Part shown: in pieces, positions 26,552 to 53,794 of the stretch | How positions within the stretch are numbered: position 1 is the stretch's first letter | How the letters are laid out: each line of letters begins with the position of its first letter | Assembly (NCBI GenBank): GCA_017522255.1 | Contig: JAFWZP010000106.1 | Location: 1,390 to 65,389 of the forward strand | From: Bacteroidales bacterium | GTDB taxonomy: Bacteria; Bacteroidota; Bacteroidia; Bacteroidales; P3 | Length of the DNA: 64,000 nucleotides | Direction: 5' to 3' | Position numbers and translations under genes: made by a program | Notes under the pieces: generated by a model | What the model was told of the DNA's origin: nothing | What the model saw: only the letters and a program-made list of their open reading frames with translations | Database searches by the model: none

Positions 26552-26597
26552 TCAAGAAAAACAACCCCCAATCTACTGAATCACAGAGATTGGGGGT
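26552..26597 (-). terminator. terminator at the distal end of the 27-kb minus-strand operon
   Basis: 11-bp perfect stem acccccaatct/agattgggggt, followed on the minus strand by gttgtttttctt. Confidence 0.75.
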
Positions 26598-26654
26598 AAT
26601 ATATCATGTTTAGCGGACAGTGATGAAAATAAATAAAACCTATCAGTGTAGAAA

Positions 26655-26933
26655 TCAAAATCCAAGTTTTTTTCGCCACTCTTCTTCATCTTTCTCAAAT
26701 TGGTCGAGCATACGCTCTGTGTTAGAGATAAATGAATCGGTGTTTCCAAGCAATGCCGCAGTACGTAATCTAATCTCTATCCGCTTACGCACAAAGCCAG
26801 CTTCATCATCTTTTGCTCCAATAGCGTTCATCACATTCCTAAGGCACACCTCGGTATTGTCCAACTTTACACCGCAACGCTCTATAGACTTATCCAAAGT
26901 CTTTTGTCTGTCTGTTAAACTATTCCAACTCAT
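26655..26933 (-). CDS. hypothetical protein (92 aa)
   Basis: ATG-initiated ORF, the last gene of the operon. Charged and helical-looking, with no motif recognised. Confidence 0.6.
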   Translation of the reverse strand: MSWNSLTDRQKTLDKSIERCGVKLDNTEVCLRNVMNAIGAKDDEAGFVRKRIEIRLRTAALLGNTDSFISNTERMLDQFEKDEEEWRKKLGF

Positions 26934-26956
26934 ATTGCTTTATTTTTTTATCTCTA

Positions 26957-27385
26957 CTAATCTATAACTCTTGTAGTAACCGGATGACTAGCAAGTCTAT
27001 TAAATTCACTCTGAATTTTATCCATAACTAGCTTATCTAGTTTGTTTTGCTGTATCATACCCCAAATTTGAGGTATCGCAAACGGCCACCAAACACATAG
27101 GGTTAAAACCGTTGGTATAACCTGCTGTCCAAATATACCTACACTTGCTTTCACATAGACATGTGGCACAGCAGGTGATATTTTAATTTTTAATGCTGTC
27201 TGCAAACCCAAAACAGCCTTAAACAAGTCTCCCTTCTTGATGGAAATATCCCAATCACCTGAAGGTAATTTTACTCCAGCAACCTCATATCCATCATAAC
27301 GCATAGAAGACATTAAACTATTGGCAACTGCATCTGCGTGAGATGCTACATTGCAAAATAACTTTGTTGATTTAAAAAGTCCCAT
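26957..27385 (-). CDS. hypothetical protein (142 aa) with one hydrophobic segment
   Basis: ATG-initiated ORF. The hydrophobic stretch VIPTVLTLCVWWPFAIPQIWGMI is a possible membrane association. Confidence 0.6.
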   Translation of the reverse strand: MGLFKSTKLFCNVASHADAVANSLMSSMRYDGYEVAGVKLPSGDWDISIKKGDLFKAVLGLQTALKIKISPAVPHVYVKASVGIFGQQVIPTVLTLCVWWPFAIPQIWGMIQQNKLDKLVMDKIQSEFNRLASHPVTTRVID

Positions 27386-27427
27386 AATTGTTTTTCTTAT
27401 ATTGAGGGTAGTGTATCTTAAAATCTA

Positions 27428-27925
27428 TCATTGAACAAATAATTTGGATAAATAAAGTTTGTCATCATCCTCTTTGTAACCACTAAAACCTAATTGTTTT
27501 AGAATATGTATAGAGGCGTTGTTATTTTTATACACATCTGTCGATACTTTACAACATAGTTTAGACTTTCCAAGATAATCCATAATTACCGAAACAGCAT
27601 CTTTCATATAGCCTTGTAAACGATATGTAGGATGCATAGCATAAAATAGGGCAGGGTTGTCTGATATATCCATTATCGCCACAAAGCCAACTAACTCATT
27701 GTTATACTTAATACCCCATAAATATCCTTCACATTCCTGCGCATATTGTTCAAAGGATGAAGTGAATTTCCAAAGTCCACCATTAGAGTCTAGTAGTTCA
27801 TATAACTCAGGAAGAAATCTTCTGGTCTCAGCATCATCGAAGACTTCTTTAAGTTTGCTCATATCATCTGCTGATATGCGAGTAAGCAGGCTGTACTTTG
27901 TCCTTATATCTGGAGTAAAATTCAT
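27428..27925 (-). CDS. GNAT family N-acetyltransferase (RimJ/RimL-like)
   Basis: 165 aa. ..VGFVAI..YRLQGYMKDAV..N..S...LKQLGF.. is a typical GNAT core. Its ATG overlaps the radical-SAM stop (ATGA). Confidence 0.75.
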   Translation of the reverse strand: MNFTPDIRTKYSLLTRISADDMSKLKEVFDDAETRRFLPELYELLDSNGGLWKFTSSFEQYAQECEGYLWGIKYNNELVGFVAIMDISDNPALFYAMHPTYRLQGYMKDAVSVIMDYLGKSKLCCKVSTDVYKNNNASIHILKQLGFSGYKEDDDKLYLSKLFVQ

Positions 27926-29151
27926 TTTATCAGCCCTCTTTCTGCCATTTCACAAAATACATACATAAATACACGAGTATATACCTGTTCATTGTGACAT
28001 AACACATCCCATTGCTCATCCGTATACTCTATGGCTGTCAAACACATATTACACATCCTGACAGCATAACAATTTTTACAGCGAGTAACTCGCCTGTTAT
28101 AATAATTCCTAACAATGTCATTTGCCTTATTCCAATCTATACCATCTTTGATGCTACCAATGCGATAGTTGTCCGACATCTTCTCACATACTCCTATCTG
28201 AAGGTTCGTATCAATGTACAACTTTGTGTTATTCGGAAGACAGGTAGCCATCGGCACTGCAGACATTGGTTCAAAAATTGGACGCTCTTTCCAGTATGCA
28301 ACACAAGATTCAAACAACTTTCTCAATACTACCCAATCTTGATGTTTCTCATAAGTATCAAGCAATGTATTGTAGAACTCTTTCACCTCTTCGTAATCAG
28401 CCCGATCAACACCTTGAGTGAAATTCGGAACCAAAGAATTCATCATCGTGGGTGCCATGTCATGTAAAATTTCATCATTATGCCACGCCTCTGCTATCTC
28501 TGCTATCTTGTCAAATGACGCAAGGGTCATAATTAAAGACATCTTCTTTGTGTATTCAGGATAAGTCGATTTGATGTATGACAGAGCCTCATATAGTTTA
28601 GAATATGAGCCATTACCCAAAGCATCAACTCGGTAACGGTCGTGAAATGATTCTGTACCATCGATAGAGACAGCCAATATAACATTATTAACCACCAACC
28701 TGTCTATGCGTTCCTTGGTCAAAGTAGTACCATTTGTGGAAACCGTAAAACTTACATCATTATTCCATCGCTTACGAGCTTTGTCAATAACATATTCAAC
28801 CAGGTTATAATTGAGCAATGGCTCTCCACCGTATATAAAAAATTTAATCGGACGCCTGCTTGCAAATGAATCTATAAATGCAAAAATCTCATCAACACCG
28901 CCTGAATCCATAGAGGAAGTATTGTGAACTCGCTTATTTGCATAGTTTCCAGAATAGCAACAATAAGTACAACGCAAATTACATTGTTCTGTCAAACCCA
29001 ATATGAAAGAGTCTACCTCTGGCAATGATTCAAAATAAACAAAAGGTGCAAACCTCCACATTGGAAGTTGCACACTTATATCACCGCCGACAATTTCACC
29101 CGTTTGTTTATTGTAGGAATATATATTGCCGGAACGTGTTTGAATCTTCAT
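27922..29151 (-). CDS. radical SAM enzyme with C-terminal SPASM/twitch-like Cys cluster (peptide-maturase-like)
   Basis: CNLRCTYC (CX3CX2C) near residue 57. C-terminal GVCEK ... CKNCYAVRMCNMC cluster. Confidence 0.85.
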   Translation of the reverse strand: MKIQTRSGNIYSYNKQTGEIVGGDISVQLPMWRFAPFVYFESLPEVDSFILGLTEQCNLRCTYCCYSGNYANKRVHNTSSMDSGGVDEIFAFIDSFASRRPIKFFIYGGEPLLNYNLVEYVIDKARKRWNNDVSFTVSTNGTTLTKERIDRLVVNNVILAVSIDGTESFHDRYRVDALGNGSYSKLYEALSYIKSTYPEYTKKMSLIMTLASFDKIAEIAEAWHNDEILHDMAPTMMNSLVPNFTQGVDRADYEEVKEFYNTLLDTYEKHQDWVVLRKLFESCVAYWKERPIFEPMSAVPMATCLPNNTKLYIDTNLQIGVCEKMSDNYRIGSIKDGIDWNKANDIVRNYYNRRVTRCKNCYAVRMCNMCLTAIEYTDEQWDVLCHNEQVYTRVFMYVFCEMAERGLIK

Positions 29152-29156
29152 CCTTA

Positions 29157-29360
29157 TTATTTAATTTTGAAGGAATGCTGTATATACTTCCCTCCTCGTC
29201 CATGGGCTGTACAACATTTATACGACATGCAAGCCACCTGACAAGACGAAATACCCATTGCTTGTATAGCCTCTTTCTTATTCTCTTCTTCAATAACGTT
29301 ATTATTCAATATTGCAAGAACATTATTAATATCTACTGTTTCTCTCAAAGTTGTATTCAT
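29157..29360 (-). CDS. candidate RiPP precursor peptide (67 aa, Cys-rich C-terminus)
   Basis: MNTTLRETVDINNVLAILNNNVIEEENKKEAIQAMGISSCQVACMSYKCCTAHGRGGKYIQHSFKIK. It fills the gap between the M48 stop (19 nt upstream) and the rSAM start (5 nt downstream). Confidence 0.55.
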   Translation of the reverse strand: MNTTLRETVDINNVLAILNNNVIEEENKKEAIQAMGISSCQVACMSYKCCTAHGRGGKYIQHSFKIK

Positions 29361-29379
29361 TGGTATTATCAATTTTCTA

Positions 29380-30204
29380 TTATCTTAGACATCTATTGTT
29401 ATTTATAATTCTATCATATTCTCCCGTCTGATACCAGAGCAATAATTCCGAAGCTCTCAAAACCAACCAAGGCATACAGGCCGCATTTATCGATAAATAT
29501 TTTATCATTTCATCGAAAATACCAGAGTGGTTTTTACTAAAATCTATTGCCTGTTGAATAAATGAATTTATATGAATCTGATTGTGATACTTTTTGGGAA
29601 GCCCTGCCATTTTTATCATAGTCTTAATAGCCACTTCAATATCTTGGCAACACAAAAGTCCCATACGATCTGCCGTAAAATCCGACACTCGATACCAATT
29701 AAGTAGAGGCATCTTAACAAGATTCATAATAATGCCCCAATCCGAAGCAATCATTGGCCGATACATAGCCTCAGTCAACATATGATATGTTTTATGACCA
29801 CATTTCATGTGTCCAAGTTCGTGACCAATCAAGAAATTTAACTCCTCCGCTGTCAATAAATCTACTGAACCGGATGGGAAAACTATCCGTCTATTCTTCT
29901 CCCCAACAGAAAAAGAACCAATATGGTAAAACCAGTTTATGGAACAATTTGGAATTTCCTTTATATCAAGTATTCTGCAAGCTTCCCTAATCTGACTATT
30001 CAATGTAGGAAGGCATTGTGACGACACATTGATTCCTTCTCCTGAATATTCAACCGCAGCATATTTTTCCATTATACTGCCGACTGTCTTGTCTACAACA
30101 GTCTTAAACCCTGGAATCTTTTTCAGGGTATCCATTGTTGATTTGTCTTCAGGATGTAGAATAGTTGAAACATCTAATCCTTTTATGGCTGTTTTTGTAA
30201 CCAT
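29380..30204 (-). CDS. soluble M48-family Zn-metallopeptidase
   Basis: HELGHMKCGH (HExxH) plus downstream SDFTADRMG (Glu ligand region). No TM segment or signal peptide. Confidence 0.8.
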   Translation of the reverse strand: MVTKTAIKGLDVSTILHPEDKSTMDTLKKIPGFKTVVDKTVGSIMEKYAAVEYSGEGINVSSQCLPTLNSQIREACRILDIKEIPNCSINWFYHIGSFSVGEKNRRIVFPSGSVDLLTAEELNFLIGHELGHMKCGHKTYHMLTEAMYRPMIASDWGIIMNLVKMPLLNWYRVSDFTADRMGLLCCQDIEVAIKTMIKMAGLPKKYHNQIHINSFIQQAIDFSKNHSGIFDEMIKYLSINAACMPWLVLRASELLLWYQTGEYDRIINNNRCLR

Positions 30205-30215
30205 ATGTAACCTCT

Positions 30216-32015
30216 TTAGTACATAATTCCGCAGTGATATTCGTATATATTTTCTATATCTGCGGCATCAAATTGAATTTGTTTGTAAAGTGATAAATAT
30301 TTGTAGGACTGTTTAGCTTTATATAATCCCCCAAAGTCACTCCAGAAGTAGTATGTGATTGTCCCCCCGTTTTCTTTGATTTCAACATTAGGAGTTAAAT
30401 TAGATGTTACATTCAAACATAAATTAAGATAGAACTCTGTTGTTTCTAAATCATTTATTATATCTCCAATGTCAAAAACAATTTTCTGTGCATTATACGC
30501 CCCATGCCACCTATATCCAACAAATGAATCTGTTAAGTATAATAATAATGCCTGCCATACAGATTGTTCGTTATTATCTAAGGACAGAACACAAAAGGGA
30601 GATATAAATGGAGGCATCAAGTCTGATTGATTTATTTCCTCATCAGAAGCAAGAGCTTCTAATTCTATTCTTGAAATTACCCAATCATCGACATTAGCCC
30701 ATGGAATGTTATCTTTCTCCCACTTTGCTAAGTTCAATTCAGTTGGAGCACTTACAATCTTTGGGATAGCATATAATTGTAAAATATTATTTGTGCTGTA
30801 ATTAGAGCGATAATCCTTAATCTCATAATCAGGATGTATATGTAGCAGTTTCAATGATTTTAAGATAACACCCCACTGTTTTTTTTCTAGTAGAGCGTTA
30901 TTGCATTTTATAAAGTCAATGTAATCTTTATACATAACTTCATAAATTGAAACCTCTTTATTGGAAGTATTTGCAAAATCTGCAAAAATCATTGCTACGC
31001 CTTCAGCTACAATTGTTGATGGATTGGGCACCATAAAAGGCTCTTTCCCCAGACATGATGAAATATATTCTTTGACGATAGGATGTTTACAAGAACCTCC
31101 AGACAGAATTATACGAGAAATGTTCTCTCTGTCACAACCATGTTTATTAAGCAACGAGTAAATGTTAGACTCTATTACCCCCAGAAGATGAAGAATTAAC
31201 TGTATATAGGTGGTGCGAGATAGTGTAGTATGAACAAATGGACAATCAATATCTACAACATCTGCTAAAGCCAAATCGATTTTTGCTTTTTCAGCAATGT
31301 AGGCTAGTTCGTATAAACTTTTAAAGCCTGATGCGCCCTCTGACTCAAGTAACCAGTCAACGACACAAACATCAAAATCACTACCTCCAAGCGGTAAAAT
31401 AACACTATCTGTAAATATCCTCCACTTGCCATCATCATTTTGTTTGTAGTCTACAAGATAAATCTTTGTATATGAACAGCCAATATCTATAAATAAATTC
31501 TGAGATGGTTTATTTCTTCCCTTATAATAATGCTGGATAATAGCAGTACTTTCCTTGACAAATGTGATATTCTTCCAACCCGCCTTTTGTGCTGACAGTC
31601 GTATTACATTCTTTTCTTTGTTGCCAAAACTATCTGGTATTGCTATGGCCACATCACAAAAGTCGTCAGGGATATACTTATTTACTTTATTTCTTATCCC
31701 TATGAAGAATAAACCTATTAGATCTATTAATTCTATACTCATTGGGCCGTCATTAGTCGAAAATGTATATCCTGATTCTTCTACTATATGACAACGCTTT
31801 AGTCGCATCGCGCAACTTCCAGAATTAAGCGTTCCCTTAACTTTCGCACTATGTCCGATCTCAAATGTTTCATGCTGAGAATCGTAGTACAAATATGAAG
31901 GACATGAAGTCTTATCTGTTTCAATCGGTAAAACATTGATTGCTCCACTAGACTGTGTCGCTATAACACAATTTTCATCGCCAAAATCAAGGAATATTTT
32001 TGGAATAGCAGTCAT
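30216..32015 (-). CDS. Hsp70/actin-fold ATPase-like protein with degenerate phosphate motifs plus ~250 aa C-terminal domain of unknown function
   Basis: IFLDFGDENCV (degenerate phosphate-1), LFIDIGCSYTKIYLV (phosphate-2-like) and IILSGGSCKHPIV (adenosine motif, shared with the 33239 ORF). Confidence 0.65.
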   Translation of the reverse strand: MTAIPKIFLDFGDENCVIATQSSGAINVLPIETDKTSCPSYLYYDSQHETFEIGHSAKVKGTLNSGSCAMRLKRCHIVEESGYTFSTNDGPMSIELIDLIGLFFIGIRNKVNKYIPDDFCDVAIAIPDSFGNKEKNVIRLSAQKAGWKNITFVKESTAIIQHYYKGRNKPSQNLFIDIGCSYTKIYLVDYKQNDDGKWRIFTDSVILPLGGSDFDVCVVDWLLESEGASGFKSLYELAYIAEKAKIDLALADVVDIDCPFVHTTLSRTTYIQLILHLLGVIESNIYSLLNKHGCDRENISRIILSGGSCKHPIVKEYISSCLGKEPFMVPNPSTIVAEGVAMIFADFANTSNKEVSIYEVMYKDYIDFIKCNNALLEKKQWGVILKSLKLLHIHPDYEIKDYRSNYSTNNILQLYAIPKIVSAPTELNLAKWEKDNIPWANVDDWVISRIELEALASDEEINQSDLMPPFISPFCVLSLDNNEQSVWQALLLYLTDSFVGYRWHGAYNAQKIVFDIGDIINDLETTEFYLNLCLNVTSNLTPNVEIKENGGTITYYFWSDFGGLYKAKQSYKYLSLYKQIQFDAADIENIYEYHCGIMY

Positions 32016-32046: not shown

Positions 32047-32394
32047 TCAACCTCCTCCCATAGAATAGTCTCCTTCAGCATATAAGATACACTTACGACA
32101 TCGAGAGCAACTGATTAAAGTGCGAGTTTCATTCGGCATTTCCGATAAAGAATTCAGGGTGTTACATCCTGGGCACTCGATGTAATATGTCTTGCAATGC
32201 TCGCAATAATATAAATCCAGTGTTCTAAAATCTGGATTCTGTTTGCTGGAGCGCCACTCTCCTGACCAAAAATGGTCAACACCATTTATAATCGACCCAC
32301 ATATAGCAAGACCGATTCCCTCCTTTGATTTCAAATCTTTGAACTTTGACCAAGGTTGGAGGTCGTGAAGACACTTTTTACATTTGTGTGACAT
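32047..32394 (-). CDS. multi-CxxC zinc-ribbon protein (115 aa)
   Basis: CxxC motifs CKKC, CEHC, CPGC and CSRCRKC. Confidence 0.65.
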   Translation of the reverse strand: MSHKCKKCLHDLQPWSKFKDLKSKEGIGLAICGSIINGVDHFWSGEWRSSKQNPDFRTLDLYYCEHCKTYYIECPGCNTLNSLSEMPNETRTLISCSRCRKCILYAEGDYSMGGG

Positions 32395-32474
32395 AATATA
32401 CTTTGTTTACTTCTTGAATATTATATCAAGTATTGTTTGACATACATAGCGAGTTTTTTAGACAGTTCATATGT

Positions 32475-32482
32475 CAAATTTA
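32475..32482 (-). promoter_or_regulatory. possible internal -7 box (TAAATTTG on minus strand)
   Basis: Lies in the only sizeable intergenic gap of the island (32395-32644), about 80 nt upstream of the ATG at 32394. A 9-bp inverted repeat, tttgacata/tatgtcaaa, overlaps it. Confidence 0.35.
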
Positions 32483-32644
32483 TGACAAATCCAAGCAATA
32501 ATTGTTGTAGCAAAAGATCTATACTTTGATAAGAATCAGTCTGTTCAACATCTTGATTAAGTATCTAAAAATCCTTCAAACCTTCTGCAAAATCCGAAGG
32601 ACAGATAATTTTTACTCCATAAGAAATCTGATTACAATATTAAG

Positions 32645-33205
32645 TTATTTCCCTTTTAATTTCAATAAAGCACGAAATTTAAACCATGATCCTTTATTAT
32701 TTTCGAGTTGATTTATCATATATCTTAGACCTTCTCCATAAATAGGGTCTGGATTCTGTAGCATTGATAACTTCCACGCATTTCCCAATTTACTGAACTG
32801 AGTAGAAAGGACATGATATGCGAGTAACTCACAAAATCCTTCTTCCTCCATAACAGAGAGATTTAGTCTGTTATCGCGACACCATGTGTGCCCCATCTCG
32901 TGTGCAACAACTGACAATAAGAATATGTAAGTTCTATTCTCTAAGAGCCAAATTTTATGCAGTTTGCCTTCTACGCTTATAGGGCATGTCAGGCCGACAA
33001 CATTCTGCATAGTTGGTTGTAATTTCTTTATTTCAGTTGTATTAACTATCTCAAATGAAATACATTTGGAATCTACAACTATGCCAATATTGCCTAATAA
33101 CAACTCCGCCTTGTGAATAATCTGATTAAGTTTTAATTGATCAGATTTATTCACAAGGGAGTCATTTAGTCTCTCTTCTTCTTCATCATTAAATGATTTT
33201 GCCAT
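32645..33205 (-). CDS. DA1-like (HEMxH..EEGxC) Zn-metallopeptidase
   Basis: VVAHEMGHTWCRDNRLNLSVMEEEGFCELLAYHVL closely parallels the plant DA1 peptidase core AHEMMHAWLRL..EEGICQVL. Confidence 0.6.
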   Translation of the reverse strand: MAKSFNDEEEERLNDSLVNKSDQLKLNQIIHKAELLLGNIGIVVDSKCISFEIVNTTEIKKLQPTMQNVVGLTCPISVEGKLHKIWLLENRTYIFLLSVVAHEMGHTWCRDNRLNLSVMEEEGFCELLAYHVLSTQFSKLGNAWKLSMLQNPDPIYGEGLRYMINQLENNKGSWFKFRALLKLKGK

Positions 33206-46666: not shown

Positions 46667-48367
46667 TTAGTAGTTCCACTTAATATCATCTGTTTTAATA
46701 GGATTGCCATCCACCTTGCCAGTTAGCTGAAGAGACTTATCCTCGTTAATGGACATTGTCAGTTCAATATCAAGGGTGCCAGCTGGCTTACGGGGAATCT
46801 CAACGTTAAATTCACCAATCCAGGTGAATAAGCGAGTTCCATTCTTGTCCGTTTCATGAACTGAATGTTCACATGTTATGTTATTGCCATCCTGCTCTAC
46901 CTCTATCTGTACAGGAATCGTCCAACCTACAAGAGATAGTTGACCAGAATCATTTGCATTCGTAAAATGACGAGTACGGCTTATTTTTCCATTCTCAAGA
47001 GTCTCACCTTTTAACAACATTGGCCCGAAAGTTCCCCCCTCCAATTCAATGCCATAATTCTTCGCTAAGGGGTCGATTATTACACTTGTACCCAAGTTGC
47101 CTAGGTTGTCAATGTCTATGATGTCAGAACCAAAATAGGATGCACCAGCAGCAACAAAGGTGTCAACGTTTGGAGCTACATAAGGATCCCTCTCCATCTT
47201 GTCCTTTACAGCATCAAAAACCCATGGAGCTTTGCTTGAGCCTCCAACAAGGACAATTCGATTTATGCCATCTATATCTGTTTTACTTTCAGATAGAACT
47301 TCCTTCAAGGTGTCGATAGTCCTATTAACATAGGGAGCAATTACATTAAGAAAATCTGACTTCGTAATTACTTCCTTAAAGTCATATGAGTTGCCGTTAA
47401 TAGTAAGGCTTCTCTCAAACTCATATTCTGCAGAACCACCTGAATATTCTTTTTTAGCCTCTTCGGCCCAAATCTTGAGTATTGCTTTCGTTTTGAGAGA
47501 ATCCTCACCTTCAAGTATGTTGATTCCTGCAGATTTAGAAAGTTTCAACACTAACAAGTCAACTAATGCCCAGTCAAGATCGTCTCCTCCAAGCTTAGAA
47601 TCACCACCTTTATTTATAAGGTTAAACTCTGGCATAGTTTTGCCAGACTTTGCAGACACCTCAAGAAGAGTTACATCGAAAGTTCCACCACCAAAGTCAT
47701 AAATAAGGAGCTTTTGAGATTTATTTTTTGTTCCCCCAAAAAGACCATCCATGAGTCCGTAGGCAATTGCAGCTGCTGTTGGCTCCTCTAAGATGGTTAC
47801 ACCCTTAGGATGGCCATTTTCATCGTATAGCATTTCTTGTGTGTCTTCATCCCAAGTTCCAAATCCTGCAAGTTTTGCAGCTTTGAACACATTCTCAATG
47901 TAAGTCGGTTGGCATTGTGCAGGAACACAAATAACAGCCTTGCATATAGTACCAGCAGTACCATATACTGGATGGTTTTGAACAGCATCACGTATCTTTA
48001 TTAGAACTTGTGTTGCCATGAATGTAGGATCAAGTTCTTCACCATCTATGGTGTATTTCGCCTTGACCTGTGGATCTAAAGCCCATTCGCTGGACGCCAT
48101 TTGCGTCTTAAATGAAGAGAAAACTTCGTCAGGCTTAGATACAATCCACTTTTTTGCTAAAGTTCCGATCTGTAGATCATCCCTACTGCGATCTGGGAAT
48201 CGAACTACAGAAGGCATAGAAAGTCCTTCTTCCGGAATGTTTACCACATCCATACCCTGAGGGCCGTAAACAGCGACACTCGAATTCGTTGTTCCCAGGT
48301 CTATACCTAGTACATATTTTGAAATTACTCTTTCAAAATGACCGTTATCTTGATTAATTTCACACAT
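46667..48367 (-). CDS. Hsp70 family ATPase paralogue (566 aa from first ATG)
   Basis: LGIDLGTTNSSVAVY, IYDFGGGTFDVTLLEV and IVLVGGSSKAPWVFDAV. The SBD-beta-like end reads IEVPRKPAGTLDIELTMSINEDKSLQL. The ORF-track start at 48385 is TTG. Confidence 0.85.
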   Translation of the reverse strand: MCEINQDNGHFERVISKYVLGIDLGTTNSSVAVYGPQGMDVVNIPEEGLSMPSVVRFPDRSRDDLQIGTLAKKWIVSKPDEVFSSFKTQMASSEWALDPQVKAKYTIDGEELDPTFMATQVLIKIRDAVQNHPVYGTAGTICKAVICVPAQCQPTYIENVFKAAKLAGFGTWDEDTQEMLYDENGHPKGVTILEEPTAAAIAYGLMDGLFGGTKNKSQKLLIYDFGGGTFDVTLLEVSAKSGKTMPEFNLINKGGDSKLGGDDLDWALVDLLVLKLSKSAGINILEGEDSLKTKAILKIWAEEAKKEYSGGSAEYEFERSLTINGNSYDFKEVITKSDFLNVIAPYVNRTIDTLKEVLSESKTDIDGINRIVLVGGSSKAPWVFDAVKDKMERDPYVAPNVDTFVAAGASYFGSDIIDIDNLGNLGTSVIIDPLAKNYGIELEGGTFGPMLLKGETLENGKISRTRHFTNANDSGQLSLVGWTIPVQIEVEQDGNNITCEHSVHETDKNGTRLFTWIGEFNVEIPRKPAGTLDIELTMSINEDKSLQLTGKVDGNPIKTDDIKWNY

Positions 48368-48378
48368 AAATTTTATTT

Positions 48379-50145
48379 TTACCAAGGTTGATTTATAGGT
48401 TCATTATCACCCACTTTTACACTTATAGTTAATGAATTGTCATTCAGTATTGTAAGTGTCAAAGTTATATCAAGAGTGTGAGGTGCTGCTTTGGGCACTT
48501 CTATTGTTAATTGTCCAAATGATTGGAACAATTTTGTGTTGTCAGGTTTAACATAATGCACAGACTTACTTGAGGACATCATTCCCTGATCATCCAATAT
48601 AGGATTCCCATTCTCATCTTTATCTATTATGTCTTCTTGAGTTGACCATCCAGTAATATAAATTAAACCTGAGTCGTTAGGATTCGTACATTTTATAGAT
48701 CCTGAATATGAAGGGTGAGCTTCGTCAAACACCAATCCTTTTGCAATGAGAGGTATAAAGAAGCCGCCACGAACTTCTACGCCATAATACTGTGATGTTT
48801 TATTCAGAATAGTAGGTTTATCACTTACATCACTATGCTCTTCGCGCTCATCATTTTCTTTCTTGTCATCCTTAGGTTCTGAATCAAAAATTATGAGCGG
48901 TTCAATATCCTCATAAGCTAACAAAGCAGCACCTTCACCAACTATAACATCAACATTGTCGGCGATATATGGTTCCCTCTCTATGAAATTCCTCACGATG
49001 TCTTGTACCCAAGGAGCTTTTGTAGAGCCTCCTACTAAAACAAATCTATTGATGTCATCAAGTTCTAATTTACTTTCTTGAATTGCTTTTTTTGTGCATT
49101 CAATAGTTTTATCTAATAGTGGCTTTATAGCATCGAGGAATTGTTCTTTTTTAATAATAACATCAAGATTGCAGTCTTGCTCAACATCAGGGTCATAAAT
49201 CAATGCCAACTGCTCAAGTTCTGATTCTGGGACTCCAACTGCAAAATCTTCAATTTTTGCTCTCTCAGATAGTTCCTTGAGAGTCGAATGAGCCATTAGA
49301 ATGTCACGTTTAGCTATACCCTTATTATCTTTGTTGACATTAATTAAGTCAATCTTGTGTTCCTTATAAAATTGCTTTGCTGCAATTTTCATAATTTCAT
49401 AATCTATATCATCACCACCCAGGTGAGTGATTCCATAGGTTCCTAAAAGTGTGAAAACAGGATTTTTGCCTTTTTCGGTGATAACATTGATGATGCTAAC
49501 ATCAAATGTTCCTCCACCAAAATCATACACCATAATGTTCTGATCTTTAGATTTTTCAGGATCAAAAAAGCCGTTTTTAAAACCGTAGGAATATGCTGCA
49601 GCAAAGGGTTCCTCAACAATTGATATACCTAAAGGCTGATTATTCTCGTCAAGAATAACATTATCTGTCTCATCTTTCTCACCGAAACCTGCAGTTATAG
49701 CGGCCTTTATCACTTCCTTTTTATAATAGGGAGTTGATGCGGCAGGAACACAAATCTTGATATTATTGATGACATTTTCACTTGCAAAAGGAGATTTTTG
49801 AGCTACTTCATATATATGAGTCAGCAATTTAGCAGCCATGTCAGTTGGGGTGTACTGCTTCCCATCAATTTTATAATGCTCAACAAGCTTTGGGTCATTT
49901 AGCCATTCTTCATTCTGCATTAGAGACTTGAATGAAACAAAAACTTCCTTGGGTTTTGAAATGGCAAATCTTTTTGCAAGGCGACCAACTATAATTTCGT
50001 CAGTCTTCCTATCTACAAAACGTATTGCAGAAGGCATGGTTTGACTTCCTGGCTCTAGTTCAAGGAATGTTGCAATATTATCCTTGACAATTGCAGCGCA
50101 GGTATTTGTCGTACCAAGGTCTACACCAATTGTAATTTTACTCAT
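48379..50145 (-). CDS. Hsp70 family ATPase paralogue (588 aa)
   Basis: IGVDLGTTNTCAAIV, VYDFGGGTFDVSIINV, FVLVGGSTKAPWVQDIV and IEVPKAAPHTLDITLTLTILNDNSL. It is the closest paralogue of the 46667 ORF. Confidence 0.85.
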   Translation of the reverse strand: MSKITIGVDLGTTNTCAAIVKDNIATFLELEPGSQTMPSAIRFVDRKTDEIIVGRLAKRFAISKPKEVFVSFKSLMQNEEWLNDPKLVEHYKIDGKQYTPTDMAAKLLTHIYEVAQKSPFASENVINNIKICVPAASTPYYKKEVIKAAITAGFGEKDETDNVILDENNQPLGISIVEEPFAAAYSYGFKNGFFDPEKSKDQNIMVYDFGGGTFDVSIINVITEKGKNPVFTLLGTYGITHLGGDDIDYEIMKIAAKQFYKEHKIDLINVNKDNKGIAKRDILMAHSTLKELSERAKIEDFAVGVPESELEQLALIYDPDVEQDCNLDVIIKKEQFLDAIKPLLDKTIECTKKAIQESKLELDDINRFVLVGGSTKAPWVQDIVRNFIEREPYIADNVDVIVGEGAALLAYEDIEPLIIFDSEPKDDKKENDEREEHSDVSDKPTILNKTSQYYGVEVRGGFFIPLIAKGLVFDEAHPSYSGSIKCTNPNDSGLIYITGWSTQEDIIDKDENGNPILDDQGMMSSSKSVHYVKPDNTKLFQSFGQLTIEVPKAAPHTLDITLTLTILNDNSLTISVKVGDNEPINQPW

Positions 50146-50150
50146 AATTT

Positions 50151-51020
50151 TTAATATTTTATTCTACGCAATTTTTCAGCTATGCCAGCCTTAGAAACAT
50201 TGTCTATTACATTTATATATTTCACATACTCTCCACTTTCAATCCAATTAAGCAATTCAGCTGCTCTCATTACAGTCCAAGGGTGAGAATTATCTGCAAT
50301 AGAAATGAATTTGATAACTTTACTCATTGCATCATAATCCAACTGTTTGAACTCTGTTGCTTGTTGGATAAATGTCTGGTAATTCATATTATTGAATTCC
50401 TTAATGGGCATACCTGCCATCTTCATAAATGCACGAATGGCTGCATCTTTATTCTGACAACAGAGTAATCCTGCTCGGTCAGCAGTAAACTCAGACATTC
50501 TATCCCAATAGTATAATGCGTACTGCAATGGAGCGGCTGCTATACTACCAAACGGGATAGAATCAATACAAATGTTAATGACTTGCGCCATCATATGGTA
50601 GAGCATATGATTACTCTTAATGTGTCCGCATTCATGACCGATAATAAACATTATCTCATCGTCATCGCACAAATCAATAAGACCTGAGTTTAACACAATG
50701 ATTGGATTCTCAGAGCCGACAGTAAATGCGTTTATACTATACCCCCATTCAATATACAACTCTGGAACTTTAGGTAAATCCAAGATCTGACAGGCATATT
50801 GTAAATACTCGTAAATTTTCGGATAGTTTTCGCTTGTTACCTTCAAGTTACTTCCAGTGTATTGTACTGTATAAATCTTCTCAATGGTATGCTTCGTAAT
50901 AAAGTTACCAACAAGGTCAACACCTGGGGTGCTTTGCAATGCACTCAAAGCCTTTTGGTCAAATGGATGCTCATACTGTGAGTGGTCCAAACCTTTAAGT
51001 ATTCTCTTATTCCTTATCAT
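50151..51020 (-). CDS. soluble M48-family Zn-metallopeptidase
   Basis: GHECGHIKSNH and SEFTADRAGLLCCQN. Paralogue of the 29380 and 51036 ORFs. Confidence 0.8.
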   Translation of the reverse strand: MIRNKRILKGLDHSQYEHPFDQKALSALQSTPGVDLVGNFITKHTIEKIYTVQYTGSNLKVTSENYPKIYEYLQYACQILDLPKVPELYIEWGYSINAFTVGSENPIIVLNSGLIDLCDDDEIMFIIGHECGHIKSNHMLYHMMAQVINICIDSIPFGSIAAAPLQYALYYWDRMSEFTADRAGLLCCQNKDAAIRAFMKMAGMPIKEFNNMNYQTFIQQATEFKQLDYDAMSKVIKFISIADNSHPWTVMRAAELLNWIESGEYVKYINVIDNVSKAGIAEKLRRIKY

Positions 51021-51035
51021 ACAACATCTATATTA

Positions 51036-51821
51036 TTATTGTTGCAATATGAATTGTTCCAATTGGTTGATTCTATTATTATACATCGGGTGTATATTAC
51101 TCAACTCAAAATACTGTGCTATTTGATTTGTCTCTTTGATAGTCGTATTGCACAATTTTGAAAATAATGATTTAATGTGTGTTATACTTTTCGCACATAT
51201 GAATCCTGCTCTATCGGCTGTATATTCAGCACATCTGTACCATTGGTTGAGGGGAACATCTATCAAGTCAGATACGATAGGACCAAGAATCTCCGATTTA
51301 CTATTAAGATTATCCAATAGACCTTTAATCGTATGACACATCAGATTTTTCTGAAGAATATGTCCCAATTCGTGACCAATCATAAATTTTAGTTCACCAT
51401 CAGATAAACTTATCATTGCTTTGCGGCTAATAAGAATGATTGGAGCACTATCGGTTCCAACACTTAATGCATTAATACCTTTGAGTTGATTCGTGACATA
51501 TACTTCTGGGACTTCCTCAATATTCAAAGATTTATAGCAACTTTGAAGGATATTATAAAAATGAGGATAATTACTATTACTAACTAATTGCCCAGTGGAT
51601 TTTATCTTCTGGATTTGCTCCTTGCAGTACTTGTCAGCAAACAACTGAAGGGACTTTCTAACCAAACCATTTGAGAGAATAGAATCCATGTAATTGTCAC
51701 AAGGATATGCATACGGAAGAGGTGCATCTTTCTTTTGAGAAAGAAGTTTTGAAGTCTTTACAGATTCAACAATTTGCTCTGCCTTACTCTTCAGTTTATT
51801 ATATCCTTCTGCAAAGGGCAT
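51036..51821 (-). CDS. soluble M48-family Zn-metallopeptidase
   Basis: GHELGHILQKN and AEYTADRAGFICAKS. Confidence 0.8.
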   Translation of the reverse strand: MPFAEGYNKLKSKAEQIVESVKTSKLLSQKKDAPLPYAYPCDNYMDSILSNGLVRKSLQLFADKYCKEQIQKIKSTGQLVSNSNYPHFYNILQSCYKSLNIEEVPEVYVTNQLKGINALSVGTDSAPIILISRKAMISLSDGELKFMIGHELGHILQKNLMCHTIKGLLDNLNSKSEILGPIVSDLIDVPLNQWYRCAEYTADRAGFICAKSITHIKSLFSKLCNTTIKETNQIAQYFELSNIHPMYNNRINQLEQFILQQ

Positions 51822-51844
51822 ATGTCGCTTAGTTTATTATAACA

Positions 51845-52144
51845 TCAAAAACTTTCATGTGTGCAATCTATTTCTCCTGATGGGCTTCGTCTTGTACCTA
51901 ATCCACATTCGCAACATTTCCAATAATTATATCCAAAAAAACTTTGTAGTTTAGTTAATCCTATTACATCATGTGCTATGCCTAGACCATGTAATACTGG
52001 GGTTATTATTGGATTTTCATCAGAATTAATGTTTTCGTATTTCATATTTAATGCGCACATTTCATGATACGAAATTTTAATATGTCTCGTATGTTTCCCA
52101 CATTTTGGGCATAGAAAGGAATTTGTGTTACTCATTGTTTCCAT
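51845..52144 (-). CDS. zinc-ribbon protein (99 aa)
   Basis: CPKC ... CCEC pairs, separated by a ~60 aa insert. Confidence 0.6.
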   Translation of the reverse strand: METMSNTNSFLCPKCGKHTRHIKISYHEMCALNMKYENINSDENPIITPVLHGLGIAHDVIGLTKLQSFFGYNYWKCCECGLGTRRSPSGEIDCTHESF

Positions 52145-52502
52145 TGTAATTTATTACTATTATACTATCTAATTCCTTACTCATTCTGCTTAATCTATCA
52201 TACAATCCATTTGTCTTGGATAATTTTGATTTTTGCTTTGGAATGAATAAATTATTTTGTTCCGGTGCAAATGCCGCTGCTGAATATGCTATATCCGAGA
52301 ATGATGCTTCATTCATCGGAATGCAATTTTCAGAAATCTCTAATTGTTCACCTAAATAATCAACTGTGTCATTATCCATTAAGCATAAGACTCGCTCATA
52401 CTCTTCGGGATGCTCGCATAGATATTTTCTTACAAAGTTTCGCTCTTCTGCGGTTACAGTCCCTTCGACATAACAGGCAATCAGTTCATCACTTATTTTC
52501 AT
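52128..52502 (-). CDS. putative cytoplasmic anti-sigma factor (124 aa)
   Basis: The N-terminus LIACYVEGTVTAEERNFVRKYLCEHPEEYERVLCL resembles the zf-HC2 anti-sigma N-domain. It overlaps the sigma gene by 14 nt and has no TM segment. Confidence 0.5.
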   Translation of the reverse strand: MKISDELIACYVEGTVTAEERNFVRKYLCEHPEEYERVLCLMDNDTVDYLGEQLEISENCIPMNEASFSDIAYSAAAFAPEQNNLFIPKQKSKLSKTNGLYDRLSRMSKELDSIIVINYNGNNE

Positions 52503-53154
52503 ACCAGTCTTTTTTAATCTGTTCTACAATAGCTTTGACCTCCCTGAGAGCCCTTGCCTTATTCATATCTACATAGTGAGCATCAGGAACGACTATCTTG
52601 CCTTTATAGAAGGTTACTTTATTCTCTTTCTTTCTTTTAGCAACCATCATTTCCGCGATTTCCTTATGATTGTATCCTTCAAGCTCCTTGATGAGAATGA
52701 AGCGATAGTCATCATTTTCCAATCGATTGAGAGCCTCCATAAGCATCACCAGTTTCTGATTTTCAGGTTCTGGTTTAGGCTCAGGCAACGGTTTGTCTCC
52801 GCCATCTGTACCTTTAGAGCCGTCTTTACCCCCTAAACCTATCAATTCATCTCTCTTTTCGAGAAATAAATGTGATGCAACGGAGCAAAACCAAGTTCTA
52901 AATTTACACTTCCATTGGAACGACTTCAAAGGCTGCCAGTCTCCCTCCTTGCCCTTAAACTGTATGTACAGATAGTTGATCAAATCTTCAAGATAAGCCA
53001 ACGAATCGTAATATCTCCATGCATAAAACTTCAAATCATCCTCGTATCTGTCATACAGCAGATAGAGCATAGCTTCTTCGTTTCCTGCAATTACAAGATC
53101 AACAATCTCCCTATCGCTCATATACTTGTATGATTTTTGCAGATTTACTTGCAT
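52489..53154 (-). CDS. sigma-70 family (ECF-like) RNA polymerase sigma factor with an insertion in region 4
   Basis: Region 2-like: EEAMLYLLYDRYEDDLKFYAWRYY..LEDLINYLYIQF..FRTWFCSVASHLFLEKR. Region 4-like: YRFILIKELEGYNHKEIAEMM....ARALREVKAIV. Confidence 0.65.
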   Translation of the reverse strand: MQVNLQKSYKYMSDREIVDLVIAGNEEAMLYLLYDRYEDDLKFYAWRYYDSLAYLEDLINYLYIQFKGKEGDWQPLKSFQWKCKFRTWFCSVASHLFLEKRDELIGLGGKDGSKGTDGGDKPLPEPKPEPENQKLVMLMEALNRLENDDYRFILIKELEGYNHKEIAEMMVAKRKKENKVTFYKGKIVVPDAHYVDMNKARALREVKAIVEQIKKDWYENK

Positions 53155-53167
53155 TATACTTCTCTAT

Positions 53168-53746
53168 TTAGCAGGTTAAACAGTTTTTTGCTATCCTGAC
53201 GCAGGCATAGCCCAATCCATTAAGCCTTACAGCCACCATAGATGTTTTGTCATCAATATGGCTCACCATTCCTTCCAATCCTCTTAATGGACCTGACATT
53301 ACACACACTTCATCGCCTACATCGATATCTTTCACTATCGTTACTTCCGAGTCGGCATTGTCAAGCATAAATCTTAGTCTGTCGATCTGATCGTCGGGAA
53401 TAGGTGTTGCAAAACCTTTTTCGGCCTCCTTGGTTCCGGGAAGTGCCAACATCTTGTAAACATACGACTGATTTCGCAAAAAAGTCTCTTCATCAACTGT
53501 TACTTTTACAAATACGACCATTGGAATTACTATTCTGTCAATCTTTTTCCTACGGTCGCTCCAATTGTGTATCTCACTCTGGACAGGAACGTATGTATCG
53601 TAACCAAGTTTTGCTAATTTGTTAGATGTCCGCTTTTCGCAGTTCATCTTACACAAAATTGCTATCCAACGCTTCAATACGGCTTCGCCGTCGTTTGTCC
53701 CATCGACAAACGTTCCCCTCCTGATAACTTCATCACACCTATCCAT
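53168..53746 (-). CDS. UpxY-family (NusG-like) transcription antiterminator
   Basis: NGN-like WIAILCKMNCEKRTSNKLAKLGYDTYVPVQ..IVIPMVVFVKV. KOW-like VGDEVCVMSGPLRGLEGMV. Trimmed to the first ATG, because 53764 is TTG. Confidence 0.8.
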   Translation of the reverse strand: MDRCDEVIRRGTFVDGTNDGEAVLKRWIAILCKMNCEKRTSNKLAKLGYDTYVPVQSEIHNWSDRRKKIDRIVIPMVVFVKVTVDEETFLRNQSYVYKMLALPGTKEAEKGFATPIPDDQIDRLRFMLDNADSEVTIVKDIDVGDEVCVMSGPLRGLEGMVSHIDDKTSMVAVRLNGLGYACVRIAKNCLTC

Positions 53747-53776
53747 AGCAATTTTTATTAGCAATAGATTATATAA

Positions 53777-53794
53777 TTTTGAAATGCAAAAGTA
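53777..53794. repeat. left arm of the 18-bp perfect inverted repeat (ttttgaaatgcaaaagta)
   Basis: Its reverse complement is identical to 54967-54984, and 22 of 24 positions match when extended inward. It contains the operon -7 box. Confidence 0.85.
53787..53794 (-). promoter_or_regulatory. -7 box (TACTTTTG on minus strand) for the UpxY-led operon
   Basis: caaaagta on the plus strand, about 40 nt upstream of the ATG at 53746. No TTTG -33 element sits at the expected distance in the present orientation. Confidence 0.55.

Follow-up and report, generated by a model that had tools for sequence, protein, structure and literature searches.

We analysed a 64-kb stretch of DNA from a Bacteroidales bacterium (GenBank assembly GCA_017522255.1, contig JAFWZP010000106.1, positions 1,390 to 65,389), referred to here as the window; all coordinates are positions in it. 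On the minus strand, the region from 26.6 to 53.8 kb contains an island of 24 co-directional open reading frames (ORFs), which run from 53764 to 26655 and include seven genes for proteins of the Hsp70 fold. In gene order, the intergenic distances are 13, -14, -17, 23, 15, 5, -7, 12, 5, -4, 5, 12, 9, 24, 33, 250, 31, 11, 19, 5, -4, 42 and 23 nt. These computed values agree exactly with the spacings and the single 250-nt gap described in the initial annotation of the island. Comparison with related loci, designated below by L numbers, indicates that the block, as one transcription unit, combines three modules that can be exchanged separately: a head cassette, an Hsp70 cargo and a tail. The cargo module comprises the Hsp70s H1 to H4, a helical protein, a triad of genes (membrane protein, giant Hsp70, membrane protein), the Hsp70 H5, a DA1-like peptidase and a Zn-ribbon protein. 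The tail module comprises an M48 protease, a Cys-rich peptide, a radical S-adenosylmethionine (radical-SAM) maturase and a GNAT acetyltransferase.

Six of the seven Hsp70-fold proteins were recognised by the Pfam HSP70 profile (E from 2.4e-73 to 2.5e-27), and the seventh, of 1086 amino acids (aa), by its structure model. The set of seven that had been proposed from sequence motifs is thus borne out. The six recognised by Pfam are:

48379 to 50145, minus strand: H1, lidless Hsp70 made of a nucleotide-binding domain (NBD) and the beta part of the substrate-binding domain (SBD-beta), with intact catalytic residues in the DnaK alignment (Pfam HSP70 E = 4.9e-55)
46667 to 48385, minus strand: H2, lidless Hsp70, paralogue of H1 (36% identity; Pfam E = 3.6e-58)
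45062 to 46654, minus strand: H3, lidless Hsp70 (Pfam E = 4.6e-45)
42040 to 43674, minus strand: H4, lidless Hsp70, paralogue of H3 (27% identity; Pfam E = 1.5e-33)
33239 to 34780, minus strand: H5, the most DnaK-like of the lidless Hsp70s (Pfam HSP70 E = 2.4e-73)
30216 to 32015, minus strand: H6, degenerate Hsp70 NBD, predicted to be ATPase-dead, followed by a C-terminal region of about 250 aa; lineage-specific (Pfam HSP70 E = 2.5e-27)

Bacteria normally keep one to three Hsp70s for proteostasis. When aligned with Escherichia coli DnaK, H1 to H5 retain D8, K70, E171, D194 and the GGGT motif, as well as T199 and D201, and their SBD-beta can be aligned too. Every copy stops at or just past SBD-beta; therefore none has the helical lid, as had been noticed in the sequence. 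Mutual identity between the paralogues is only 20-36%, which indicates old duplicates rather than a recent amplification. H6 was rightly singled out as degenerate, because its phosphate-2 motif fails (DIGCSYTK for DxGGGTFD). An orthologue of H6 is missing from L008, L009 and L012, where a gene of 188-198 aa occupies that place. The NCBIfam scores of the Hsp70s (75-203 bits) lie far under the cutoffs of the DnaK, HscA and HscC families (620-1019 bits; e.g. 203 vs 648). Partial PADLOC matches to PDC-M61B, with E values of 3e-10 to 3e-7, were obtained for H3, H4 and the giant Hsp70; they cover only part of the NBD, corresponding to residues 701-847 in the giant protein.

The triad and the gene for the helical protein lie between H3 and H5, interrupted by H4:

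43671 to 45056, minus strand: 461-aa protein, helical and coiled-coil-like, with a small beta element at its C-terminus (AlphaFold2 model, mean predicted local distance difference test score, pLDDT, 75)
40853 to 42034, minus strand: first triad member, TM393 (393 aa), with transmembrane segments predicted at residues 1 and 356 and an alignment of 17 orthologues
37580 to 40840, minus strand: second triad member, the giant Hsp70 (1086 aa; AlphaFold2 pLDDT 73.9; no Pfam match)
34805 to 37570, minus strand: third triad member, TM921, a bitopic membrane protein by transmembrane prediction; family found in 54 loci

In the AlphaFold2 model of the giant Hsp70, residues 1-465 are all-beta and make up several beta-sandwich domains; the NBD comes next (about 470-916), and then a domain resembling SBD-beta (about 930-1063). 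Foldseek matched this model to full-length DnaK/BiP (E = 2.5e-15, about 650 columns), and the matches include a lid-truncated BiP crystallised as an oligomer (7a4u). The family has invariant VDYGTS, DMGAGTLD and GRS motifs. Its N-terminal beta region is rare: it was found in 24 of 1.84 billion representative clusters, 20 of which are proteins of 1080-1160 aa with the region at the same N-terminal position, the other four being short fragments.

Both partners of the giant Hsp70 are bitopic, which confirms the two membrane-anchored proteins of the initial annotation. TM393 has a signal peptide, a periplasmic domain with motifs like those in domains of the von Willebrand factor A (vWA) type, one C-terminal transmembrane helix and a short conserved cytoplasmic tail. 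The family alignment displays HxIxAxD(xSxS) and NRTxLxxxTDxxYNG; an intact DxSxS was seen in L010, L011 and L013 alone, and the metal-ion-dependent adhesion site is degenerate in the window protein. The tail (window 40853-40910) follows the pattern Y-x-P-x-x-[DN]-x-[IFL]-x-[IL], conserved in the Bacteroidales, Fibrobacter and Longimicrobium orthologues. This cytoplasmic tail is a candidate ligand of the giant Hsp70. TM921 consists of a signal peptide, a periplasmic domain, a transmembrane helix at about residue 266, a cytoplasmic coiled-coil region and a conserved C-terminal domain. Among close relatives whose Hsp70s are 56-88% identical, its residues 700-921 are 53-78% identical and its residues 1-600 only 13-28%. 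The hypervariable outer and juxtamembrane part may be read as the signature of an arms race. PDB sequence searches with TM921 gave no match, and the same held for M48b and the DA1-like protein described below.

The 461-aa helical protein has only 27 homologous clusters, all from the same operon type. The GrpE-like tail that it had been proposed to carry found no support: there was no Pfam or PDB-profile match, hhalign against E. coli GrpE gave a probability of 0.1%, and Foldseek returned nothing at E < 0.001. The model of this tail is of low confidence, and a very divergent GrpE-like element is still conceivable.

The head cassette precedes the Hsp70 genes and consists, in the window, of six genes:

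53168 to 53764, minus strand: UpxY-family NusG-like antiterminator, first gene of the block and of the head (NCBIfam NF033644, 118.1 bits vs a cutoff of 100; Pfam NusG and KOW)
52489 to 53154, minus strand: sigma-70 family sigma factor of the extracytoplasmic function (ECF) type (TIGR02937 E = 3.3e-8, 33 bits, under the cutoff of 42.9)
52128 to 52502, minus strand: putative small cytoplasmic anti-sigma-like protein, 124 aa, assigned by position and N-terminal motif
51845 to 52144, minus strand: putative Zn-ribbon protein of 99 aa, a lineage-specific insertion in the head (two CxxC pairs, residues 12 and 77)
51036 to 51821, minus strand: M48a, soluble M48 Zn-metalloprotease (Pfam Peptidase_M48 E = 3.3e-12; HELGH and EYTADRAG; no transmembrane segment)
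50151 to 51020, minus strand: M48b, soluble M48 Zn-metalloprotease, last gene of the head (Pfam E = 3.2e-24; HECGH/EFTADR; no transmembrane segment)

The UpxY assignment is confirmed by its score and by the NusG-like NGN and KOW domains that characterise this family, and UpxY genes also stand at the head of related loci. Of the sigma/anti-sigma pair that had been proposed, the sigma factor is supported by a profile of seven orthologues that matches E. coli sigma-E (1or7) over residues 10-173 (E = 1.8e-6); its partner is identified by position and motif. The anti-sigma-like gene is always located 3' of the sigma gene, with a 14-nt overlap in the window, and its product, which has no transmembrane segment, carries conserved ELxAxYxxG..EER..VRxYL and FxDIAxxAAAFAP motifs. 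The 99-aa Zn-ribbon gene is absent from L080-L082 and L086 and has no counterpart elsewhere; nucleotide homology with the other heads breaks exactly at this gene (52150-51823).

Relatives in which the Hsp70s have 34-74% identity still show 74-87% for M48b, the best-conserved protein of the locus. Its homologues fall into 2356 clusters, and the nearest, from Parabacteroides pacaensis, is 97% identical. M48a gave weak PADLOC matches to RmrA (E = 1.8e-4) and CapP (E = 2.8e-3). Both proteases, and M48c in the tail, possess the HExxH motif and the downstream ExxAD motif of M48 peptidases, with Asp replacing Glu in M48c, and all three score above the Pfam cutoff. Unlike HtpX and Ste24, they have no transmembrane segments.

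The remaining genes of the block are as follows:

32645 to 33205, minus strand: DA1-like soluble HExxH Zn-peptidase (Pfam DA1-like, 28.2 bits vs a cutoff of 25; HEMGH and EEGFCE; no hydrophobic segment)
32047 to 32394, minus strand: putative double Zn-ribbon protein, 115 aa (four CxxC pairs, motif level)
29380 to 30204, minus strand: M48c, soluble M48 protease that travels with the peptide/radical-SAM cassette (Pfam E = 1.8e-11; HELGH/DFTADR)
29157 to 29360, minus strand: Cys-rich precursor-like peptide, 67 aa (...MGISSCQVACMSYKCCTAHGRGGK...), with conserved counterparts in L012 and L008 and called as a gene in metagenome contigs
27922 to 29151, minus strand: radical-SAM/SPASM peptide maturase (Pfam Radical_SAM E = 1.2e-16; CNLRCTYC at residues 57-64; C-terminal CxxC pairs)
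27428 to 27925, minus strand: GNAT acetyltransferase of the tail cassette (Pfam Acetyltransf_3 E = 5e-14)
26957 to 27385, minus strand: 142-aa protein with a hydrophobic C-terminal half (no family match; 71-75% identity in L008 and L009)
26655 to 26933, minus strand: 92-aa protein, last ORF of the block (no family match; not found in related loci)

The three M48 proteases (E from 3e-24 to 2e-11) and the DA1-like protease were thus correctly recognised as soluble. For the two proposed zinc-ribbon proteins, the CxxC motifs are present and the assignment stands at the motif level; orthologues of the 115-aa protein are 58-64% identical in L008 and L009. The peptide-modification module was also confirmed, with the features of a radical-SAM system for a ribosomally synthesised, modified peptide all present: CxxxCxxC, a Cys-rich SPASM region and an adjacent Cys-rich precursor, which is conserved. 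The maturase is CcpM-like (NCBIfam CcpM E = 6.9e-56) and also matches GG_samocin_CFB (E = 8.4e-44), its scores being under every specific family cutoff (190 vs 500 and 150 vs 300), so that it is not placed in any one subfamily (CcpM, GG_samocin_CFB, ranthipeptide or sactipeptide types).

The initial annotation had called for a neighbourhood comparison, and the gene order of the island does recur outside this genome. L008, L009 and L012 carry homologues of the giant Hsp70 at 47%, 38% and 36% identity, in the same order as in the window: M48, H1, H2, H3, helical protein, H4, membrane protein, giant Hsp70, membrane protein, H5, DA1-like peptidase, Zn ribbon. L080-L082, found via the 461-aa protein, have this order plus a head of NusG/UpxY, sigma factor, 113-aa protein, M48 and M48. 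Because the order recurs at 36-74% protein identity in these independent contigs, the gene set is not a chance juxtaposition. In L009, the Hsp70 core occurs without the peptide cassette.

Giant Hsp70s of the window type are scarce, with 22 clusters at detectable word similarity among 5.8 billion proteins, all of them metagenomic. A profile of the giant Hsp70 detected 67 loci in GTDB species representatives, mostly Bacteroidales, with isolates that include Bacteroides cellulolyticus, Parabacteroides sp., Prevotella lacticifex and a Muribaculaceae strain. Beyond Bacteroidales, loci were found in Saprospiraceae, Aureisphaera (Flavobacteriaceae), Longimicrobium, Fibrobacter, Bacillota and Sulfuricurvum. 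The triad itself is present in more than 50 species loci, where its partners are either Hsp70s or a tubulin-like protein. Three operon types were distinguished. Type A, the commonest (about 35 loci), adds four families to the triad, among them a tubulin-like 539-aa protein with a GSLFGGTGASG motif and a weak Tubulin_2 match; these operons are often headed by UpxY and lie beside genes for an integrase, a primase and a lysozyme that belong to a conjugative element. In type B (about 12 loci), an H4-like Hsp70 gene stands 5' of the triad, and proteins of 880 aa, 250 aa and 1200-1800 aa (about 19 transmembrane segments) replace the last four of type A. Type C is the Hsp70-rich type of the window, and its examples in Aureisphaera and Saprospiraceae have neither an M48 protease nor a peptide cassette. 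Among the carriers of the Hsp70/triad module is a cultured strain, Aureisphaera galaxeae NBRC 110018 (L011).

The make-up of type A (L016-L065) can be seen in Bacteroides cellulolyticus (L027:7634-19737): UpxY, the triad, a 400-aa protein, a 183-aa protein with three transmembrane segments, the 539-aa tubulin-like protein and a 1150-aa protein. The 539-aa protein had been considered as an Hsp70 and was rejected as such, being tubulin-like instead. Nine clusters from related loci (c1, c2, c3, c4, c5, c7, c9, c10 and the TM393 family) were also tried as divergent Hsp70, DA1 or M48 proteins, and none exceeded a probability of 30% in hhalign against the window families. No P-loop (Walker A) motif was found in any window protein, and none is conserved in the accessory clusters of related loci.

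The head cassette has a distribution of its own. A metagenome scan with M48b yielded 80 loci, to which L086-L088 were added through M48b homologues; 66 of these, from a sample biased to close M48b relatives and to gut samples, could be classified. The head is present in at least 66 gut-Bacteroidales loci. The cargo behind it consists of vWA, PP2C and Ser/Thr kinase genes (TerY-P-like) in 32 of the 66, the M48c/peptide/radical-SAM cassette comes first in 14, directly after M48b, and the Hsp70 module follows in seven, the rest falling into smaller types. In P. pacaensis (L086), for instance, integrase and mobilisation genes and the head are followed by vWA-like proteins, two protein kinases, a coiled-coil protein and a transglutaminase-core protein. 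In a Bacteroidaceae metagenome-assembled genome (MAG), the genes after the head encode an 836-aa protein, a DUF4407 protein, a DA1-like peptidase, vWA, PP2C, a kinase-vWA fusion, a small peptide and an M48 protease. The sister cargo proteins match PADLOC TerY (E = 2.7e-32) and STK_OB (E = 1.4e-42), as well as Pfam Pkinase, PP2C_2 and VWA (e.g. L124, L132).

Nucleotide comparisons located the point at which cargo is exchanged. L119, which has an Hsp70 cargo, shares 94.3% identity over 10,783 bp with L124, which has a TerY-P-like one; this stretch extends from the tra genes across almost the whole of M48b, and the identity stops about 65 nt short of the M48b stop codon. L102 and L113 show the same break pattern, with 99.3% identity upstream. 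The head of the window is 95% identical to that of L089, which is of the TerY-P type, over 51342-50226, and its homology to all other heads stops at 50226-50242, within the last 25-30 codons of M48b. Moreover, the C-terminal tail of M48b, after HPWTVMRAAELLNWIxxGEY, co-varies with the cargo type (L086-L168). It ends in ...KLRRIKY or ...LSLGDFTFG in Hsp70-type loci, in ...RKNKYLNQ in the largest TerY-P subgroup (k4, 5/8 loci), and, for example, in ...LLLPYKNK in other vWA/kinase subgroups. These cargo-specific tails (50151-50242) therefore suggest both a docking peptide and a preferred recombination junction. Since head and junction are shared with TerY-P-like loci, the Hsp70 module sits in a slot usually held by a validated defence module.

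Two sets of genes recur upstream of the head. One includes TraM, DUF4138, a TraG-type coupling protein and lysozyme, and marks a Bacteroides conjugative transposon. The other is the mark of a ternary conflict system of the MoxR-vWA kind described in PMC7159879, and comprises bpMoxR, a vWA protein resembling CoxE and an SNF2 helicase; bpMoxR-vWA lies beside the head in nine loci. Integrases or recombinases adjoin the window island, L027 and L086. The Hsp70-type operon was found in at least four different genomic contexts, and there are no tra genes near the window copy or L080. In searches for a phage or plasmid origin, no match came from tblastn of the giant Hsp70 on collections of phage and plasmid sequences, nor from scanning IMG/VR with this protein and with M48b.

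The tail cassette is also exchanged. Between the window (27428-30204) and a Rikenellaceae MAG (L012:17595-20371), M48c is 87% identical and the rest of the cassette 78/61% identical at the protein level, and the Hsp70 core and other operon proteins are 34-44% identical. This difference indicates a recent lateral exchange of the tail cassette alone. The initial annotation had envisaged a machine coupling Hsp70 substrate capture to M48/DA1 proteolysis. As a single co-evolving unit, such a machine is contradicted by three observations: the M48a/M48b head also precedes Hsp70-free cargo, M48c travels with the peptide cassette, and the Hsp70 modules of Aureisphaera and Saprospiraceae have no M48 protease. 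The DA1-like gene, likewise, occurs in Hsp70-free cargo (L087, L158).

The locus was then compared with known systems. TerY-P-like modules with an OB-fused kinase are reported as stand-alone anti-phage systems in a passage of PMC11090510 that cites Gao 2020. TerY-P (the vWA protein TerY, PP2C and a Ser/Thr kinase; Anantharaman 2012 and Gao 2020, as summarised in the same paper) shares the head and the junction in sister loci. However, the window has no kinase or phosphatase, its only vWA-like protein is periplasmic, membrane-anchored and putative, and the head cassette does not belong to TerY-P as published. Indeed, Pkinase and PP2C had no match in the 23 window ORFs scanned with Pfam (all but the 67-aa peptide ORF), and TerY and STK_OB had none in the ten proteins from M48a to TM921 scanned with PADLOC.

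A second comparison is with the DO-GTPase/GAP1 conflict systems, in which tubulin or HSP70 plus GrpE themes occur (Kaur, Burroughs, Iyer and Aravind 2020, PMC7159879). Similarities include a membrane-proximal multi-gene organisation, tubulin-like proteins and Hsp70s alternating as the NTPase theme, a vWA protein with an extracellular domain, and peptidases (PMC7159879). The published systems, however, carry one or two Hsp70s, and the window six or seven. Membership in this group, whose systems have GAP1 and one or two P-loop GTPases of the TRAFAC class, was rejected, as no P-loop GTPase occurs in the window proteins or in the conserved clusters of related loci. An FNIII/DnaJ fusion and GrpE were not found in the window, and neither was GAP1, for which the profile libraries used have no model. 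The FtsZl1 (Tubulin_2)/vWA operons, which include FtsZl1 of Bacteroides caccae and in which vWA and membrane proteins were noted (Makarova and Koonin 2010, PMC2875224), encode a tubulin-like protein as do the type A relatives, and probably overlap with them. In contrast, Pfam detects no tubulin-like gene in the window, and Hsp70-like proteins, M48 proteases and the head cassette are not mentioned in that paper (PMC2875224), which proposes membrane remodelling as the role of such operons.

Canonical Hsp70 systems (DnaK/DnaJ/GrpE, HscA/HscB and HscC) share the NBD and SBD-beta folds and the catalytic residues kept in H1 to H5, but the window copies have no lid, no J partner and no supported GrpE, and a single operon contains six or seven paralogues. 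The combination of a sigma factor, Hsp70s and Zn-metalloproteases in one unit recalls the sigma-32/DnaK/FtsH circuit, where sigma-32 is titrated by chaperones and controlled by a protease; the proteases of the window are soluble M48 enzymes and not the membrane AAA+ protease FtsH. CnuD of type III CoCoNuT and PDC-M61B are Hsp70-like NBD/SBD proteins in predicted defence operons, often beside TerY-P. Unlike CoCoNuT, the window has no McrBC, HEPN or helicase genes, and the ATPase motifs that are degenerate in CnuD are intact in H1 to H5. Finally, ImmA/IrrE and CapP-CapH of CBASS resemble the window in their arrangement, with the genes of a soluble Zn-protease and a small regulator side by side where a defence operon begins; the window has instead a tandem M48 pair, and a sigma/anti-sigma-like pair in place of a helix-turn-helix repressor. 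By its predicted gene content, the locus lacks the defining features of every named system considered, in agreement with the initial annotation, which knew of no matching system. In the literature searched, whose coverage is incomplete, neither the multi-Hsp70 module nor the triad nor the UpxY/sigma/M48/M48 head family was found to be described.

Altogether, the comparisons suggest that the locus is a rare cargo variant of a mobile, modular operon family that otherwise carries a known defence module and seldom Hsp70s. We see about an even chance that it is a mobile-element-borne, inducible conflict or anti-phage system. Among the roles that had been listed for the island, conflict or defence has the most contextual support, owing to the head shared with TerY-P-like modules, the conjugative transposon and bpMoxR-vWA contexts and the swaps at a fixed junction. 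Several points weigh against it. The argument is one of guilt by association through a shared regulatory head, which could serve unrelated cargo, and the loci behind it come from the biased metagenome sample mentioned above. No classical effector (nuclease, NADase or pore-former) was recognised, and PADLOC gave only weak or partial matches for the ten window proteins scanned. The island of the window lies between the housekeeping genes htpG and porZ, with only a recombinase next to it and no tra or defence genes. TM393 as a vWA protein is a motif-level assignment: it had no match in Pfam (17 orthologues) or in the PDB profile search, and hhalign gave a 14% probability against a true vWA domain. 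The anti-sigma-like protein had no Pfam or PDB-profile match and no detectable anti-sigma domain. As the initial annotation had also noted, no J-domain protein was found among the 23 ORFs scanned with Pfam, nor was a nucleotide-exchange factor found, so that a normal Hsp70 cycle is not evident. The occurrence of six or seven anciently diverged, lidless Hsp70s without a J protein implies that the Hsp70 fold is used outside classical chaperoning.

The chance that the mechanism of the Hsp70 module is a new one is substantial. A more specific proposal, which we put forward tentatively and regard as rather doubtful, is that it represents a new prokaryotic immune class, in which lidless Hsp70s and a giant Hsp70 mounted on two envelope receptors form an ATP-driven sensor or polymer that detects invaders and triggers proteolysis. 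The module would be one cargo of a plug-and-play defence locus, widespread on Bacteroidales conjugative elements and seemingly not described before, into which new cargo would recombine at a junction fixed in the 3' end of the protease gene, with the M48b tail as cargo-specific adaptor. In the conflict or anti-phage reading given above, which we prefer, the two membrane proteins would sense an event at the envelope, and the signal would pass to the giant Hsp70 and the lidless paralogues, acting as ATP-driven clamps or as a hetero-oligomeric switch. This switch could license the M48 proteases of the head, possibly via M48b's C-terminal tail, which is specific to the cargo. Analogous switches made of a protease and a regulator suggest that the proteases might then cleave the anti-sigma-like protein, leading to self-amplification, and/or other targets, with the DA1-like peptidase and the peptide cassette as added effectors. 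The detailed mechanism is much less certain than the conflict role itself. If the conflict role is correct, bacterial immunity would gain a class of sensor based on chaperones, the Bacteroidales mobilome would prove to contain a locus for modular cargo exchange, and a function could be assigned to the triad, which occurs in several phyla with tubulin-like and Hsp70 partners alternating. The comparative frame for a use of the Hsp70 fold outside classical chaperoning is a head that drives a validated anti-phage module in sister loci, a swap junction defined at the nucleotide level, and carriage by conjugative transposons of abundant human and animal gut bacteria.

Other explanations have to be weighed against a conflict role. 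The locus might be a dedicated machine for envelope stress, proteostasis or surface assembly, in which the ECF sigma factor senses damage, the Hsp70s hold or extract membrane or secreted clients that the two membrane proteins present to them, and the Zn-proteases degrade these clients, much as in the sigma-32/DnaK/FtsH logic. The ECF sigma and anti-sigma-like genes at the head, the intact Hsp70 catalytic residues and SBD-beta, the two bitopic membrane proteins, the location of the island between htpG and a type IX secretion system (T9SS) gene, and the membrane-remodelling proposal for related tubulin-like/vWA operons (PMC2875224) all fit such a machine. A housekeeping device of this kind would not be expected to be so patchy and rare (22 clusters for the giant Hsp70, 24 for its N-terminal domain), to have relatives on conjugative transposons and beside integrases, or to be exchanged with TerY-P-like modules behind the same head. 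The hypervariable outer part of TM921 and the failure to find a J protein or nucleotide-exchange factor also speak against it, and we consider it unlikely. Alternatively, the locus could make, process and export a modified peptide, either a bacteriocin or a signal, for antagonism between bacteria or for signalling: the radical-SAM enzyme would cross-link it, M48 and DA1 would trim it, and the Hsp70s and membrane proteins would handle it. This would account for the conserved Cys-rich precursor beside a CcpM/GG_samocin_CFB-like maturase and a GNAT enzyme, for the co-travelling M48c and for the 14 loci where the cassette directly follows M48b. Yet the cassette was exchanged independently of the Hsp70 core in L012, it is missing from L009, and the Hsp70 modules of Aureisphaera and Saprospiraceae have neither M48 nor cassette. 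No exporter (ABC or peptidase C39) was found, and most head-bearing loci carry kinase, phosphatase and vWA genes, making a peptide factory quite improbable.

A role for the benefit of the mobile element, for example in its establishment, in entry exclusion or in addiction, rather than in host defence, is improbable too. The head does lie directly 3' of tra genes and lysozyme in several loci, and an integrase or recombinase is adjacent in the window, L027 and L086. But tra genes are missing from the vicinity of the window copy and of L080, the same head stands beside bpMoxR-vWA and not tra in nine loci, and such cargo diversity is more typical of defence hotspots; the two roles overlap and are hard to separate. 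As for genes brought together by chance, or Hsp70 duplicates decaying in an array without joint function, the degenerate and lineage-specific H6 is what could be cited for it. Gene order conserved at 30-74% identity across families and classes, paralogues that diverged anciently (20-36% identity) and each have their own orthologues, tight or overlapping spacing and intact catalytic motifs leave this explanation with practically no weight.

The ends of the block and its neighbour are marked by the following features:

53787 to 53794, minus strand: Bacteroidetes-type -7 promoter box TACTTTTG, read from the sequence, within the left arm of a 33-nt inverted repeat
about 26554 to 26598, minus strand: intrinsic terminator, a G+C-rich hairpin ACCCCCAAUCU...AGAUUGGGGGU followed by a U-run (RNA fold z = -3.96; 0/200 shuffles fold as well)
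53885 to 54856, plus strand: divergent tyrosine recombinase beside the island (Pfam Phage_integrase E = 1.8e-24)

The promoter box (read at 53794-53787), the terminator and the recombinase had all been correctly located. The recombinase gene is bracketed by the inverted repeat, whose arms (53777-53809 and 54952-54984) are 88% complementary. Because each arm carries an outward-facing TACTTTTG -7 box, the operon promoter is present twice, with the second copy beyond the recombinase. Inversion through these repeats was not seen, the orientation being the same in 5/5 metagenome contigs read (three places listed). The adjacent recombinase had been taken as a sign of horizontal acquisition. The island does behave as a conserved, horizontally mobile unit; the recombinase is not a conserved neighbour, being absent upstream of L080-L082. 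No att-like direct repeats of at least 13 nt were found at the island ends, and no empty site was seen, 12/12 contigs with an identical HtpG being island-bearing or too short to tell. The AT-richness is weaker than had been proposed, being modest with respect to the rest of the window (35.4% vs 37.7% GC); the adjacent housekeeping genes htpG and porZ, the latter being the T9SS gene, have 42.5% and 45.2%.

The lone 250-nt gap of the operon (32395-32644) contains a terminator-like minus-strand hairpin at 32602-32571, followed by TTTT. It could split the Hsp70/DA1 part from the Zn-ribbon/H6/peptide part, or attenuate read-through without UpxY. Rfam and tRNA scans of the window gave no match. About 1.3 kb between the right repeat arm and porZ (54985-56257) has no convincing ORF, Rfam family or tRNA and holds short G+C-rich palindromic stretches, e.g. 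at about 55680-55760; this region could be a remnant integration site or contain an unannotated RNA. Elsewhere in the window, a 683-aa protein (13689-15740, plus strand) matches both Pfam PAD_porph (Porphyromonas-type peptidylarginine/agmatine deiminase) and a T9SS C-terminal sorting domain. Its gene product thus resembles a secreted Porphyromonas-type peptidylarginine deiminase (PPAD-like enzyme) in an apparently gut-derived Bacteroidales genome.

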